DNA from: Escherichia phage Ecwhy_1
DNA length: 64,000 nucleotides
Reading direction: 5' to 3' (one strand)
Sequence record: MH791411.1
The notes beneath the pieces are model-generated. The model had not been told where the DNA came from and did not search any database. It saw only the letters and a program-made list of their open reading frames with translations. Below, one piece after another: positions 43,271-62,694 of the stretch (the stretch's first letter is position 1; every line of letters starts with the position of its first letter). The position numbers and the translations under genes are program-made.

Positions 43271-43314
43271 GTGGTCATTATAACACATCATTCGGCGTTG
43301 TCAACATCTTTTTT
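43271..43314 (-). promoter_or_regulatory. Consensus sigma70-type promoter P1 (copy 2 of the duplicated cassette)
   Basis: Minus strand TTGACA-acgccgaatgatgtgt-TATAAT (-35 at 43299-43304, -10 at 43277-43282). Lies 84 nt upstream of P2. Confidence 0.75.
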
Positions 43315-58659: not shown

Positions 58660-59062
58660 TTCTTTTCCCTTTATTTCGTTGAAACATTGTAACAGCCTTT
58701 ATTATACTGTTACACATTCGTTCAGTCAAATACTTTTGACAATCTAGTACATCAATGTACATGAACTTATCCAATTCTGGGTGACTTCTACCATATCTGT
58801 TTGTGTAAGTACTTTTACACTCCAACTCTTCTGGTATAGGCTTATCTTTGGCTGTATAGAAAAATAAAACTAAACGTTTCCCCTTTCTATACGATACATC
58901 ACCAAGAAACAGAAGATCATCTTCATCGATTTCATATCCTGTCTCTTCGTAGCATTCACGTACAGCAGCCTCTTTAAATGTTTCTGTACCTTCAGTTTTA
59001 CCTTTAGGTAAGTCCCAGTGATTCTGTCCGTGTTGTATGCCCGATAAGTATCTGACCATCAC
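58649..59062 (-). CDS. Nudix hydrolase (second copy in window)
   Basis: Nudix box PKGKTEGTETFKEAAVRECYEETGYEI. GTG/ATG start with no SD, very close to an extended -10 element. Confidence 0.8.
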   Translation of the reverse strand: MMVRYLSGIQHGQNHWDLPKGKTEGTETFKEAAVRECYEETGYEIDEDDLLFLGDVSYRKGKRLVLFFYTAKDKPIPEELECKSTYTNRYGRSHPELDKFMYIDVLDCQKYLTERMCNSIIKAVTMFQRNKGKRNES

Positions 59063-59168: not shown

Positions 59169-60284
59169 TTAGAACATTTGCTTGATTGCTTCAATACGCA
59201 ATTCAGCAACAAAATCACGAATCTCCGATGTTTGGAGTTCACCATCTTTCACTAACTGCTGAATATCAGGTAATTCAACATCAGTATAACGATCATAAAC
59301 TTTAATAATCAAATCTTCAAGTTCAGAATCAATTTCTTTGTTCAAAATGAAGTTTTCCAGTACTTTGTAAAGGAAATCTTCACCACCATTGTTTTTGATA
59401 TTCATATCCAGTAAGATTTGTCCCATTTCAACTGGGGTCTTCTTACGGAAGGTTTTAATATCTTCACGGAAACGCTTGATGTAATTACTAAACTTAACGT
59501 ACTTAACTGGAACCTTAATGGAACCGTTAAGTACTGAATCATTATTTACTTCTTCATTTTCAAGAAGTACTGTCCATAAGAAATATGGTTTATATTCTTC
59601 TGTACAATTTGCAGCGATAGAATCAATTAATTCCAGACGTTTCTTGGTAACTGGAACTGTAGTAAATGCCTTTTCGTAATAACCAAATTGTACCAGAGTT
59701 TTGATAAACTTGGAAGGGTTTTCTTCAGAAAGTGCTTTTTCGAATTCAACAAAAACACGATCTGGAACTAGATGGTCTAGTTCACCAGTACTAACCATAT
59801 CTTTACACATTGTCATAGTATCATCATGGATTGTAAAGTCGGAGTAACGCGTAGCGAAACGGGCCAAACGTAGAACACGCAATGGATCTTCTTTAAAGTG
59901 TTCTGATACATGACGAAGTACTTTGTTCTTGATATCAGCTTTCCCGCCATAAGGGTCGATGTGAATCTGGAGTACTGGATCATATGCAATACTATTGATT
60001 GTGAGATCACGACGATATAGATCTTGTTCTAGTGTCACACCTTTTGTATTCACTTCGAAGCCACCATATCCAGTACCAGTTTTACGCTCAGTACGGGCTA
60101 ATGCGTGTTCATTACCTTCTGGACTTAGATATACAGGGAAATCCTTACCTACTTGCTTGTATCCAATACTTTGCAAGTATTTAATATCGGATTCGGTAGC
60201 ACCGACAATAACATAATCTTTGTCTTTTGCACGGATACCCATTAAACGGTCACGAACGTAGCCACCAACCAAATACTTTTTCAT
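59169..60284 (-). CDS. cca: tRNA nucleotidyltransferase (CCA-adding enzyme, class II, no HD domain)
   Basis: LVGGYVRDRLMGIRAKDKDYVIVG (GGxVRD...DxD), RRDLTINSIAYD, DPLRVLRLARFATRY. 371 aa. Confidence 0.9.
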   Translation of the reverse strand: MKKYLVGGYVRDRLMGIRAKDKDYVIVGATESDIKYLQSIGYKQVGKDFPVYLSPEGNEHALARTERKTGTGYGGFEVNTKGVTLEQDLYRRDLTINSIAYDPVLQIHIDPYGGKADIKNKVLRHVSEHFKEDPLRVLRLARFATRYSDFTIHDDTMTMCKDMVSTGELDHLVPDRVFVEFEKALSEENPSKFIKTLVQFGYYEKAFTTVPVTKKRLELIDSIAANCTEEYKPYFLWTVLLENEEVNNDSVLNGSIKVPVKYVKFSNYIKRFREDIKTFRKKTPVEMGQILLDMNIKNNGGEDFLYKVLENFILNKEIDSELEDLIIKVYDRYTDVELPDIQQLVKDGELQTSEIRDFVAELRIEAIKQMF

Positions 60285-60285
60285 A

Positions 60286-60408
60286 TCATTCCCCCATCAA
60301 CCAATCACGTAGACGTTCCCAGAAGCCTTTTGGCTGATATTCTGGATATTCATATTCATCTGTTCCTTGCTCGGAAACACCCCAATCTTCTTCTAATACT
60401 GTAATCAC
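60286..60408 (-). CDS. Unannotated acidic micro-ORF A (40 aa), paralog of micro-ORF B
   Basis: GGAGGcattGTG start. Peptide (M)ITVLEEDWGVSEQGTDEYEYPEYQPKGFWERLRDWLMGE*. The stop lies 1 nt before the cca ATG. About 60% identical to the peptide at 61418-61543, with substitutions that preserve the frame. Confidence 0.55.
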   Translation of the reverse strand: MITVLEEDWGVSEQGTDEYEYPEYQPKGFWERLRDWLMGE

Positions 60409-60419
60409 AATGCCTCCAA

Positions 60420-60857
60420 TTAAATTAATCTATCACGTAGACGGTCGTAATATTTTGCATGTATATCTAGTATACACTGAAATGATGGATAGTCAATACT
60501 AAATGTATCATCAATGAACATGTACTGAAGAAGTGTTTCTGGTCCATTATCAACAACTGGTAATGTCCCTTCTTTTTTTGATAGGGTGTGCCACATCAAC
60601 TCACTTTCAATATGGTGAGTTGCGTATGTCAATTCAATCTTACTTTTTCGTAGTAAAATTAACAATTCATCATTGTCATCGAGTGCATTACGAAATTTAA
60701 TACGAACTGTACCCTGGAAATTATTAGTGTACATAACACGATGATGATTGTATGAAATTAAACCACGTCTTTCAGTACTGATTTCATGTTCAGCAAAGTA
60801 CTTTAACGTTTCATTAAATTTTGGAATTTTACTTGCGTCCACCAATGTAATCCTCAT
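60420..60857 (-). CDS. Small paralog-family protein (member 4)
   Basis: C-terminal LLQYMFIDDTFSIDYPSF matches YLQYQFIDDTFGFDFELY of ORF 60829. The N-terminus MRITLVD matches MRTFNID and MRNTLIK if started at ATG 60857 (track start 60863). Confidence 0.65.
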   Translation of the reverse strand: MRITLVDASKIPKFNETLKYFAEHEISTERRGLISYNHHRVMYTNNFQGTVRIKFRNALDDNDELLILLRKSKIELTYATHHIESELMWHTLSKKEGTLPVVDNGPETLLQYMFIDDTFSIDYPSFQCILDIHAKYYDRLRDRLI

Positions 60858-61236
60858 ATACATGATATACGTTCATTATACTATTATATAGTTCAAAGTC
60901 AAATCCAAATGTGTCATCAATGAACTGGTATTGCAGATATTCTTCATATGAAGCATCAATTGGTAATGATCCAGCACGAATATCATCTGATTTAAAATCG
61001 TCAATGTATCTTAATGTTATGTCTTCATCAACAGTAATATCTATCATCAACGTATCGTCACTGTACCAAAGGTTATGTATACGGATGTAAAGTTTCTTAG
61101 CACGATTAAAACTAGATACATTGGTATTGCGATGGAGTTTATCTAAGTTGAAGTAAAAACCAGGCTCGTTTTTACTTATGTTTTTCATATGTTCTGCAAT
61201 CGAATCAATTATATAATCAATGTTGAATGTTCTCAT
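60829..61236 (-). CDS. Small paralog-family protein (member 3)
   Basis: Track start 61242 is TTG. ATG 61236 overlaps the upstream stop (ATGA). See paralog motifs above. Confidence 0.65.
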   Translation of the reverse strand: MRTFNIDYIIDSIAEHMKNISKNEPGFYFNLDKLHRNTNVSSFNRAKKLYIRIHNLWYSDDTLMIDITVDEDITLRYIDDFKSDDIRAGSLPIDASYEEYLQYQFIDDTFGFDFELYNSIMNVYHVYEDYIGGRK

Positions 61237-61418
61237 AAACAAATCTCATAGCGGTTTGTGTTTGGATTGTAGCAATAGGTATCATTAATTTTAACACCAG
61301 GTTTAAGTGTTATTGTTGTTCCTACTTCAGTACTGGGTTCTGCATCACAATAAATCATCACACCAACGCCACAGATTAAAGCTAAGATACAAATAATAGC
61401 ACATATTGTATATTCCAT
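61233..61418 (-). CDS. Small membrane protein (61 aa)
   Basis: MEYTICAIICILALICGVGVMIYC is one hydrophobic helix, followed by a Cys-containing soluble tail. ATG 61418 overlaps the micro-ORF B stop (TGATG); the track start 61436 lies inside micro-ORF B. Confidence 0.55.
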   Translation of the reverse strand: MEYTICAIICILALICGVGVMIYCDAEPSTEVGTTITLKPGVKINDTYCYNPNTNRYEICL

Positions 61419-61543
61419 CACTCCCCCATCAGCCAATCAAAGAGACGTTCCAAGAAGCCATTAGGCTTGTATTCTGGTTCTTTGTTCACGTCGGTTTCTT
61501 GTTCATAAACACCCAAATCTTCTTCAAGTATAATTGTATTCAT
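61418..61543 (-). CDS. Unannotated acidic micro-ORF B (41 aa), paralog of micro-ORF A
   Basis: The ATG overlaps the upstream stop (TAATG). Peptide MNTIILEEDLGVYEQETDVNKEPEYKPNGFLERLFDWLMGE*. The stop overlaps the next ATG (TGATG). Confidence 0.6.
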   Translation of the reverse strand: MNTIILEEDLGVYEQETDVNKEPEYKPNGFLERLFDWLMGE

Positions 61544-61914
61544 TATATATTATACTCTATTATACCATCATCACTTTCACCAGACAACCACTTAATGTAA
61601 TTTACTTTGTAGAAATTAATCAATGCATAAGTGCTGTACTCAATCAACAAGTGATCTCTCAAGAATTCGTCTTGAGCATATCCATCTTCATCCAAATCTG
61701 TTGGAATATCAGTTTCTTTGTCTTGAATGTGTAAAGTTATTGTGTCTTTTGTTATACAAATTGTTATATGATTACAAATAGTAATGATGATTATGCTATA
61801 TGTTCTATTGAAATATATTGTGAAATCTTCATTAATATTATATCTTCGACTTTCTTCATATTTCTGATATGGGTCGAAATGTGATAAATTAACTTTAATT
61901 AATGTATTTCTCAA
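61543..61914 (-). CDS. Small paralog-family protein (member 2, divergent)
   Basis: Probable TTG start at 61914 after GAGGTGtaag, giving (M)RNTLIKVN. The C-terminal DEFLRDHLLIEYSTYALINFY weakly matches the family motif. Confidence 0.5.
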   Translation of the reverse strand: MRNTLIKVNLSHFDPYQKYEESRRYNINEDFTIYFNRTYSIIIITICNHITICITKDTITLHIQDKETDIPTDLDEDGYAQDEFLRDHLLIEYSTYALINFYKVNYIKWLSGESDDGIIEYNI

Positions 61915-61926
61915 CTTACACCTCAA

Positions 61927-62307
61927 TCATATAAAGTAATTATACATTTTATTGTACAATATAAAAAGGTCTTTAACATTATCATAAGTAATATCAGATA
62001 CATCATGAATTAATGATAACTGGAAAAATGATGCTTCGTCTATCTCTACTGGGATTATAACATCATAGTCTTCGTCAATTTTATGGGTGTAGTATTTTAT
62101 GTGATCAGCATTCAACACAAGGTTGTATTTTGTATCATCTTCAATTAATCCGACAAATTGAGATTTTTGATTAATAAAAAATCCAATCCCAACACAACGG
62201 TTATCTGGATATGGATAGTACCATCTATTAATAACTAGGTGTTCAGGTAAGTCCATATCATGTGTTGATATTAAAGATTTTACAATTCCCATCCAGGAAT
62301 AATTCAT
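61927..62307 (-). CDS. Small paralog-family protein (member 1, divergent)
   Basis: The C-terminal EASFFQLSLIHDVSDITYDNV follows the pattern of ..LQY.FIDDTF..D. RBS tatGGAGttttaattATG. Confidence 0.55.
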   Translation of the reverse strand: MNYSWMGIVKSLISTHDMDLPEHLVINRWYYPYPDNRCVGIGFFINQKSQFVGLIEDDTKYNLVLNADHIKYYTHKIDEDYDVIIPVEIDEASFFQLSLIHDVSDITYDNVKDLFILYNKMYNYFI

Positions 62308-62320
62308 AATTAAAACTCCA

Positions 62321-62352
62321 TAAGAAAAGGGACAGAATAATCTCTGTCCCTT
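62321..62352 (-). terminator. Rho-independent terminator after hpf
   Basis: Minus strand aagggacag-agattatt-ctgtccctt followed by TTcTTat. Confidence 0.65.
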
Positions 62353-62353
62353 T

Positions 62354-62382
62354 ATTATATCTTACTCTTCGTCTTCAGTCAA
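62354..62382 (-). promoter_or_regulatory. sigma70-type promoter straddling the hpf stop codon
   Basis: Minus strand TTGACT-gaagacgaagagtaaga-TATAAT (17-nt spacer). The predicted start site falls inside the 5' arm of the terminator hairpin. Confidence 0.55.
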
Positions 62383-62694
62383 GTCTTCTTGAACTGGATG
62401 TTCGGGGTGGTTACGGCGATGCAATTTGATGCTTTTGTCTTTACCTAAGACAGTTTCCATTTTTTCAAATGAATCACCAATTGCTTTGTATAAATCTGCA
62501 TCATCGGCGGTGACAATCTTACCACCTGATGTTAAAGTTACGGAATATTGATTCTTATGCTCTTTCTTCACATGAACACCGATATAAAGTACTGAAGAAT
62601 CACTAAACTTCGTTAGTGCATTTGCTTCTGCATGAATCGCGTCATTGATTGCTGGAGTAATATCAACATTACCTTGGATAACTAAATCTAGCAT
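62362..62694 (-). CDS. hpf: Ribosome-associated inhibitor / hibernation factor (short HPF-RaiA/YfiA family)
   Basis: 110 aa. VDITPAINDAIHAEANALTKF and DADLYKAIGDSFEKMETVLGK parallel recalled E. coli YfiA [21 protein letters not shown] and [21 protein letters not shown]. The acidic C-terminal tail QEDLTEDEE resembles the YfiA EEVEEE tail. Confidence 0.8.
   Translation of the reverse strand: MLDLVIQGNVDITPAINDAIHAEANALTKFSDSSVLYIGVHVKKEHKNQYSVTLTSGGKIVTADDADLYKAIGDSFEKMETVLGKDKSIKLHRRNHPEHPVQEDLTEDEE

Follow-up and report, generated by a model that had tools for sequence, protein, structure and literature searches.

A 64,000-nucleotide stretch of Escherichia phage Ecwhy_1 (sequence record MH791411.1), hereafter referred to as the window, carries a run of small genes on its minus strand between the gene of an HPF/RaiA-type ribosome hibernation factor (HPF) and cca, the gene of a CCA-adding tRNA nucleotidyltransferase. 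The run comprises four genes of similar size, uniformly referred to here as paralogs A to D, two very short open reading frames (ORFs), microA and microB, and mem, which encodes a small membrane protein. The order on the minus strand is HPF / A / B / microB / mem / C / D / microA / cca (Table 1), in agreement with the ORFs, gene order and strand given in an original prediction, which had described the genes as a tandem array of paralogs. The window, which shares 99.4% identity with Escherichia phage Turkey3, belongs to Asteriusvirus, a genus of 121Q/PBECO4-like jumbo phages of E. coli. It is matched by 37 phage records, nearly all of them from 121Q/PBECO4-like Asteriusvirus jumbo phages with E. 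coli and Salmonella hosts. The ORF coordinates were set by the starts conserved in these relatives.

The genes of the array are closely packed. Stop and start codons overlap between B and microB (TAATG), microB and mem (TGATG) and mem and C (ATGA), C and D share 14 nucleotides at the 3' end of C, and a GGAG ribosome-binding site lies 9 nucleotides 5' of the ATG of A. The products of A, B and C each have a net charge of about -10 and that of D of about -3, while the micro-proteins have an isoelectric point (pI) of 4.06. The mem product has an N-terminal hydrophobic helix and a tail with a Cys residue and is conserved in the relatives, with 54% identity in L013, a metagenomic contig of a more distant relative. 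An MR.T N-terminus had been proposed as common to three of the paralogs. It is not borne out by the conserved starts, as the upstream extension of D is found in this lineage only, relatives of D starting with (M/L/V)D..KIP, and C starts with MKKF in phages 121Q and A4.

Table 1. Genes and putative expression signals of the HPF-cca slot, in the order of the minus strand (aa, amino acids)
Feature	Position	Strand	Description
HPF	62362..62694	-	HPF/RaiA-type ribosome hibernation factor gene, upstream slot anchor; Pfam Ribosomal_S30AE, E = 7e-11; annotated HPF/RaiA in relatives
σ70-type promoter-like site	62354..62382	-	TTGACT-17-TATAAT; 11/12 matches, 17-nucleotide spacer
Hairpin	62326..62353	-	G+C-rich, AAAGGGACAG-loop-CTGTCCCTTT, then TCTT; directly abuts the -10 box
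A	61927..62307	-	126 aa, pI 4.6; phrog_36582; [ST]EEE[FY]FQxS superfamily
B	61543..61914	-	123 aa, TTG start, pI 4.6; B/C/D/X family; only in some Asteriusviruses
microB	61418..61543	-	Micro-ORF B, 41 aa, pI 4.1; phrog_34272; paralog of microA
mem	61233..61418	-	Small single-pass membrane protein, 61 aa; phrog_4189, E = 4e-18
C	60829..61236	-	135 aa, pI 4.65; phrog_20693; structure modelled
Promoter-like site in C	60875..60902	-	TTGACT-16-TATAAT, 11/12; in the conserved C-terminal motif of C, upstream of D
D	60420..60842	-	140 aa, GTG start, pI 6.2; phrog_20693; start conserved
Promoter-like site in D	60469-60496	-	TTGACT-16-TATACT, 10/12; at the equivalent motif position of D
microA	60286..60408	-	Micro-ORF A, 40 aa, GTG start; GGAGG ribosome-binding site; phrog_34272
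cca	59169..60284	-	CCA-adding tRNA nucleotidyltransferase, downstream slot anchor; annotation in relatives; PolyA_pol Pfam match in L013

C and D are directly recognisable as paralogs. They match each other in phmmer at E ~1e-6 among 1196 six-frame ORFs, and in hhalign with a probability of 96.6% (E = 6e-10) over 112 columns, so that their similarity is full-length and not C-terminal alone. Both match phrog_20693 (C, E = 2e-62; D, E = 5e-54). Pairwise comparisons of A and B with C or D were not significant (B against C of the window, E = 1.5), nor was that of A with B (E = 8.8). Profile comparisons across the window were made against its 890 ORFs; in these, B was the first non-self match of a profile of C and D (E = 0.002, the next match having E = 1.4), and only 1 of 2000 shuffles scored as well.

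An exhaustive profile search, covering 1.84 billion representatives, yielded one new protein (P0104, 125 aa, E = 3e-8), hereafter referred to as X. It is encoded on contig L013 in the order lysozyme / HPF / X / mem / cca. Identity of L013 to the window is 76% for cca, 80% for the NUDIX gene, 71% for the lysozyme and just 26% for HPF (L013 7632-7949); within the genus, HPF is the least conserved flank, at 76-83% identity. The profile scores of X are 36.5 bits with C, 33.2 bits with D and 27.3 bits with B, the last of which was reached by none of 2000 shuffles, and the corresponding hhalign probabilities are 96%, 94% and 73% (P = 3e-5 for B). As X matches the profiles of C, D and B, the four proteins are classified on their sequence profiles as one family. 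No further members were found with any profile in the rest of the 64-kb window, word-indexed protein searches returned Asteriusvirus relatives only, and scans with the family alignment of contigs from IMG/VR, metagenomes and genomes returned only 121Q-like loci or nothing. P0105, a 736-aa repetitive secreted protein from the exhaustive search, was rejected as a spurious, repeat-driven match. In a protein collection clustered at 90% identity, window-type A (P0089, P0093) is filed in the cluster of B (P0001) despite the absence of similarity, a clustering artefact that masked the exact match of A in the homolog search.

Paralog A is connected to this family through proteins of other phage genera. 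Its profile comparisons with C/D or B/C/D/X were not significant among the window ORFs (hidden Markov model (HMM) E = 0.36-2.5), and direct hhalign comparisons of A with B, C and D remained in the noise (P = 0.02-0.06, equalled by 13-44 of 2000 shuffles). A matches phrog_36582 at E = 8e-68, and its orthologs show recurring weak matches to the same few PHROGs without function. Searches with A using tblastn gave weak matches in other Rak2-like jumbo phages, pointing to small-gene arrays in the Salmonella phages Munch and 7t3, and their leads also reached the syntenic HPF-cca slot of Munch and of Erwinia phage Hallingskeid. Munch gp218 scores 19.6 bits with the profile of A and 19.6 bits with that of B/C/D/X. 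A profile built from 13 Munch, 7t3 and Hallingskeid proteins and containing no Asteriusvirus sequence, hereafter EXT, has A as its best match among the window ORFs (E = 1.1e-10) and B as the next, and aligns in hhalign with A (96.3%, P = 1.5e-9), C (77.7%, P = 1.9e-5), B (P = 0.004) and the B/C/D/X profile (P = 2.3e-4). A taken together with the Munch and 7t3 proteins aligns with B/C/D/X at a score of 31.5 (P = 1.4e-4), compared with a mean of 10.5 and a maximum of 19.3 for 200 column-shuffled decoys; in similar controls for EXT against C and against B, the real scores were reached by no decoy. The profile alignments are collinear and always cover the same motif, and related genes fill the same slot in other genera. 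The core of the superfamily reads [IL]P...[ST]EEE[FY]FQxS.[IL].[DN]...[YF], and the C-terminal segment of the array members [IL]P...EE.[FY][FL]Q..[FL]I.D...[IF].[YF].

On this profile evidence A, B, C and D are homologous at the superfamily level, the evidence for A being indirect, and A is placed as the outgroup to B/C/D/X, in a sister clade with the Munch and Hallingskeid proteins. The claim of four paralogs sharing a C-terminal motif thus stands directly for C and D, through the C+D profile and X for B, and through EXT for A. It fails in the pairwise comparisons of the divergent A and B with C and D, by which the original prediction had proposed to judge it, and both genes are rescued by profiles and intermediates.

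The slot itself is conserved beyond the genus, the HPF anchor being found also in Munch, XaC1, Hallingskeid and L013. Munch has the order HPF / terminator / gp217 / gp218 / 47-aa micro-ORF / cca, and Hallingskeid three members / micro-ORF / three genes / cca, with five of the six genes matching the family well and the sixth weakly; in XaC1, HPF / 57 aa / micro-ORF / cca, no family member is present. Across the relatives, the number of family copies in the slot ranges from 0 to ~6, a copy-number comparison that bears out the proposed plasticity of the region. The full seven-gene slot occurs in Turkey3, fEgEco12, CMSTMSU, WPEC5, ph0011 and EC.P1. Most Asteriusviruses (121Q type) are without [B+microB], JNE01 and Turkey5 without [C+D+microA], and WPEC3 without A, while the Salmonella SD phages have A, mem and microA together with a D fragment or a mem::D fusion. 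Alignment of the relatives delimits [B+microB] as a clean cassette of ~500 bp between the stop of A and the start of mem, and [C+D+microA] as a cassette between the stop of mem and the start of cca.

Two products of deletion were observed in the SD phages, namely a chimera in Salmonella phage SD-1_S14 in which mem is fused to the last 30 residues of D (L006 1633-1818) and a 33-aa fragment of D in SD-15_S21 (L005 1633-1734); the fusion protein recurs as P0103 in the exhaustive search. The superfamily has a second array in the gp395-gp405 region of 7t3 and Munch (L016, L017), where tRNA genes and a gene for an HNH endonuclease are scattered among at least five members 136-167 aa long, and the superfamily is therefore not restricted to the HPF-cca slot.

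The array is best read as a variable accessory slot, kept by Rak2-like jumbo phages between the HPF and the CCA-adding enzyme genes and filled in the window by four diverged members of one superfamily, two micro-protein genes and one membrane-protein gene, and we put the probability of this reading at about 0.6. Several observations count against it or narrow it. The link of A to B/C/D runs via intermediates and is weak in the direct statistics (P = 0.02-0.24, with the HMM E-values given above). The alignment of EXT with D is not significant (P = 0.54), D being tied in via C and X only. The AlphaFold2 model of A has a predicted local distance difference test (pLDDT) score of 42.7 and is unusable for fold comparison, the order of helices and strands being compatible with C. 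Pfam, NCBIfam, PDB sequences and PHROG annotation assign no function to the paralogs, and D, at pI 6.2, is not acidic. Finally, the -35 box of the promoter-like site in front of the array lies in coding sequence, and part of its conservation is owed to the protein.

For C, an AlphaFold2 model from 22 C/D-family sequences reached medium confidence (pLDDT 73.6, predicted template modelling (TM) score 0.74). In it, a single helix is followed by six antiparallel strands and then by two C-terminal helices, which carry the conserved motif and are packed on the six-stranded sheet. The public model of the PBECO4 ortholog of C agrees with it at a TM score of 0.90, and that of the D ortholog at 0.61. 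No paralog was recognised by Pfam, NCBIfam or PDB sequences, profile searches of the last giving only chance-level matches to other proteins.

The σ70-type promoter-like site immediately upstream of the array was correctly predicted and is conserved in the relatives, and the distant L013 has TTTACA-17-TATGAT at this place despite a different HPF C-terminus. Its -35 box falls within the last codons of HPF and its -10 box immediately after the HPF stop codon. The window holds 11 sites with at least 11 of 12 promoter matches, all on the minus strand, compared with 4.5±1.7 expected on both strands together. These sites are at 62382, 60902, 58729, 43889, 43304, 43212, 38792, 17247, 14148, 13913 and 1160, with perfect 12/12 matches at 43304, 43212 and 13913, and similar σ70-like sites lie at the 3' ends of the NUDIX gene (58701-58729) and of B (61559-61587). 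The adjoining hairpin has invariant stems and variable loops in 12 relatives, including the distant metagenomic one, and the annotation of Munch has a terminator at the same place; the hairpin is probably the intrinsic terminator of HPF. Host RNA polymerase would start at a conserved σ70-type promoter abutting the HPF terminator. The predicted start, ~7 nucleotides past the -10 box, falls in the 5' arm of the hairpin, so that new transcripts would lack the full hairpin and escape, and transcripts from upstream would stop. The array may then be translated as a tightly coupled string through the overlapping stop and start codons. Both micro-ORFs end in ATG GGG GA(A/G) TGA, so that a Shine-Dalgarno-like GGGGGA comes to lie just 5' of the next start codon and could serve the next gene; in microA the last codons are ATG GGG GAA TGA, and the GGGGGA precedes the ATG of cca.

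Further promoter-like sites lie inside C and D, at equivalent positions of the conserved C-terminal motif (Table 1). The hexamers are invariant, synonymous positions included, across the 53%-identical alleles of C and the orthologs of D, and they are absent from B and X; B has a different promoter-like site, TTGTCT-17-TATAAT with an extended -10, upstream of microB. Internal promoters in the motif of C and D are a lead, not a finding. They raise the possibility, unlikely in our judgement, that the motif is held mainly at the DNA level and embeds σ70 promoters for the downstream genes, C and D being in part promoter carriers. The coincidence of an 11/12 and a 10/12 match at the same motif position, the invariance of third positions between alleles with a synonymous divergence (dS) of 0.9-1.8 and the separate site of B are all in keeping with such a role. 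However, X, B and A as well as proteins of other genera keep the motif while using different codons and lacking the promoter hexamers, whole-gene ratios of nonsynonymous to synonymous divergence (dN/dS) below 1 indicate constraint at the protein level, and the synonymous positions concerned are few, so that chance may account for them. Embedded promoters are, moreover, compatible with an accessory slot of diverged superfamily members and do not exclude it.

It is improbable that C and D are the sole true paralogs and that A and B are unrelated genes whose C-terminal likeness arose by chance in an AT-rich, acidic and aromatic-rich proteome. Such an explanation agrees with the lack of significant pairwise matches, with the poor structure model of A and with the comparison of A with the B/C/D/X HMM, which was no better than that of the best random ORF (E = 0.36). 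It does not accommodate the match of X to B, equalled by no shuffle, or the recovery of A by the Asteriusvirus-free EXT profile, whose alignments with C and B no composition-preserving decoy equals, and it leaves the collinearity of the alignments on one motif and the occupation of the same genomic slot in other genera to coincidence.

The micro-ORFs are duplicates of each other, as had been proposed, with 67% amino-acid identity (E = 1e-13), dN of 0.20 and dS of 0.90. In the DNA they form a 114-nucleotide direct repeat with 77% identity that ends at the borders of the micro-ORFs. An HMM of the micro-ORFs finds homologs outside the genus in XaC1 (E = 8e-14), Hallingskeid (E = 1e-11) and Munch (E = 7e-9), all of them in the slot. 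In Munch, XaC1 and Asteriusvirus, cca follows the micro-ORF directly, and in Hallingskeid the micro-ORF lies elsewhere within the slot. In JNE01 it is a patchwork of microA-like and microB-like residues, which suggests gene conversion between the two copies. That the micro-ORFs are not genes at all, being either degenerate leftovers of the C-terminal part of family members or sequences that serve regulation alone, as leaders or in coupling, is as improbable as the unrelatedness of A and B. The C-terminus of D (YYDRLRDRLI) does resemble that of the micro-ORF (FWERLRDWLM), with 83% identity over 23 nucleotides, deletions in the Salmonella SD phages do yield a 33-aa D fragment and a mem::D fusion ORF, and the micro-ORF 3' end supplies the Shine-Dalgarno-like sequence of the next gene. 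Yet hhalign relates the micro-ORFs to D at only P = 0.04 and to EXT at P = 0.38, and the ORF is intact and recognisable in Klebsiella phage fENko-Kae01, Munch-like phages, XaC1 and Hallingskeid, four lineages outside the genus. Orthologs of the micro-ORF have a dN/dS of 0.12-0.41 and microA and microB one of 0.22, and a strong ribosome-binding site of its own (GGAGG) is present. An origin as decayed C-termini was rejected on the same hhalign values, the conservation in XaC1, Hallingskeid and Munch and a dN/dS below 0.5.

A single segmental duplication of a [paralog, paralog, micro-ORF] unit into A-B-microB and C-D-microA followed by rapid divergence, by which the original prediction had explained the array, fits the repeated gene order, the clear duplication of the micro-ORFs and the common superfamily of the four larger genes but is very unlikely, as the closest pair is C-D (mutual best, E = 6e-10) and not the positional pairs A-C (P = 0.058) and B-D (P = 0.15), A is far closer to the Munch and Hallingskeid proteins (P = 1.5e-9) than to B, C or D (P ~0.02), the micro-ORFs are far less diverged than any pair of larger genes, the DNA repeat is confined to the 114 nucleotides of the micro-ORF, the units of insertion and deletion are [B+microB] and [C+D+microA] with A present without B and microB in most genomes, and Munch already has the order paralog-paralog-micro-cca.

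Since A is closer to the Munch and Hallingskeid proteins than to C, the split between A and C is older than the divergence of these phage genera; and since the paralog-paralog-micro-cca order is present in Munch, it is ancestral and not a recent copy. In this reading the array of diverged superfamily members was built by old tandem duplication and divergence, with B, C, D and X in one clade and A in its sister clade. Later events were gain or loss of the [B+microB] and [C+D+microA] cassettes, a duplication or gene conversion that affected the micro-ORF separately, and recombination that exchanged alleles one gene at a time.

Values of dN/dS are below 1 throughout, at 0.2-0.5 for A to D, 0.12-0.41 for the micro-ORFs and 0.07-0.10 for cca, and by this measure the ORFs of the array are real genes under relaxed purifying selection. 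Divergence is uneven along the array. Compared with EC.P1, dS is 0.017 for cca, 0.52 for D, 0.17 for C, 0 for mem, microB and B, and 0.38 for A; compared with 121Q, C is 53% and D 92% identical, C existing as two allele types that share just 53% identity. Because synonymous divergence jumps too, these gene-by-gene jumps are attributed to allele exchange by recombination rather than to positive selection alone. Endonuclease genes lie at the edges of the slot in some relatives, a position from which we infer that they may be involved in the exchanges. JNE01 has a homing/HNH-endonuclease-family gene between HPF and the lysozyme (L003 2993-3625; phrog_953, E = 8e-68), and gp215 of Munch (L020 1689-2306), at the same position, resembles by eye a homolog of it. 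In A4, an endonuclease gene between cca and microA (L007 422-1489; phrog_559, E = 9e-51; phrog_9084) breaks the coupling of micro-ORF and cca.

The neighbourhood of the slot is translation-related, with genes for HPF, the CCA-adding enzyme, peptidyl-tRNA hydrolase, a NUDIX protein and a macro domain protein, and a translation-linked role suggested by it is possible but unproven. The paralogs could be acidic binding proteins, made early, that act on basic partners of the host or the phage by sequestering or remodelling them, with copies and alleles tuning the array to different hosts; this is the weakest step of the interpretation and is proposed tentatively. The C model is loosely alike, in shape only, to the p32/gC1qBP/Mam33 proteins (Pfam MAM33), which are acidic, doughnut-shaped mitochondrial trimers. 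The p32 fold has an N-terminal helix, a seven-stranded antiparallel sheet and two C-terminal helices, as against six strands in the C model, p32 comprises ~180 residues as against 135 in C, and neither Pfam nor a profile search of PDB sequences detected any sequence likeness to p32/MAM33. It is a very long shot that the superfamily is a phage analogue of the p32/Mam33 acidic rings that acts, together with HPF and the CCA-adding enzyme, on the translation machinery of the host, for instance by retaining basic proteins that belong to the ribosome or bind RNA, with the micro-protein as an obligate partner and a copy number that tunes the system to hosts or counters translation-targeting defences. 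The host-takeover or anti-defence role originally proposed for the array is a guess.

Hyperplastic regions of T4-like phages pack small early genes tightly behind σ70-type promoters and show presence/absence polymorphism, jumps in divergence and homing-endonuclease genes nearby. The array resembles them in its small packed genes, σ70-type promoter-like sites, presence/absence polymorphism, sharp divergence jumps and nearby homing-endonuclease genes, and differs from them in phage lineage and gene families. Single genes of the array, B excepted, are already clustered in PHROGs (phrog_20693 for C and D, phrog_36582 for A, phrog_34272 for the micro-ORFs and phrog_4189 for mem) without function, and the superfamily is split there over at least ten families, including 27549, 23322, 17453, 24941, 13866, 12674 and 38573; neither the link between A, B and C/D nor the conserved HPF-cca slot is recorded. 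Rak2-like jumbo phages are rich in paralogous gene families, of which the HPF-cca array is one. The papers searched on Asteriusvirus and RaK2 paralogs gave a general count of paralog abundance only, and the family, its motif, the HPF-cca position and the copy-number polymorphism were not found described in them. The link between the four genes, the motif with its tentative fold, the conserved slot with its micro-protein and the copy-number series are new here.

About a tenth of the genes of Rak2-group jumbo phages belong to unexplained paralog families, one of which is now defined by its motif and tentative fold, by a set position between two genes related to translation and by a companion micro-protein that several phage lineages conserve. 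The natural variants with 0 to ~6 copies provide a ready experimental series. If the function proves ordinary or the genes dispensable, the locus would be one more plastic accessory region. The array also illustrates how true paralogs among fast-evolving phage genes can be missed by pairwise tests, and how a gene order that repeats may date back to an ancestor instead of resulting from recent duplication.

Another run of small genes (136, 67, 43, 114 and 129 aa) lies upstream of the lysozyme in Turkey3 (L001 7805-9712), beyond the right end of the window, and the window ORF at 63814-63993 is its start. The run gave no match to the family, micro-ORF or membrane-protein queries and is alike in size only. 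The LysM-lysozyme (endolysin) gene at 62720-63673, next to HPF, is mosaic, being 87% identical to Turkey3 between flanking genes of 99-100% identity, with half of the gene 99% identical to JNE01, and the alignment of the closest relatives to the window ends at ~62711.

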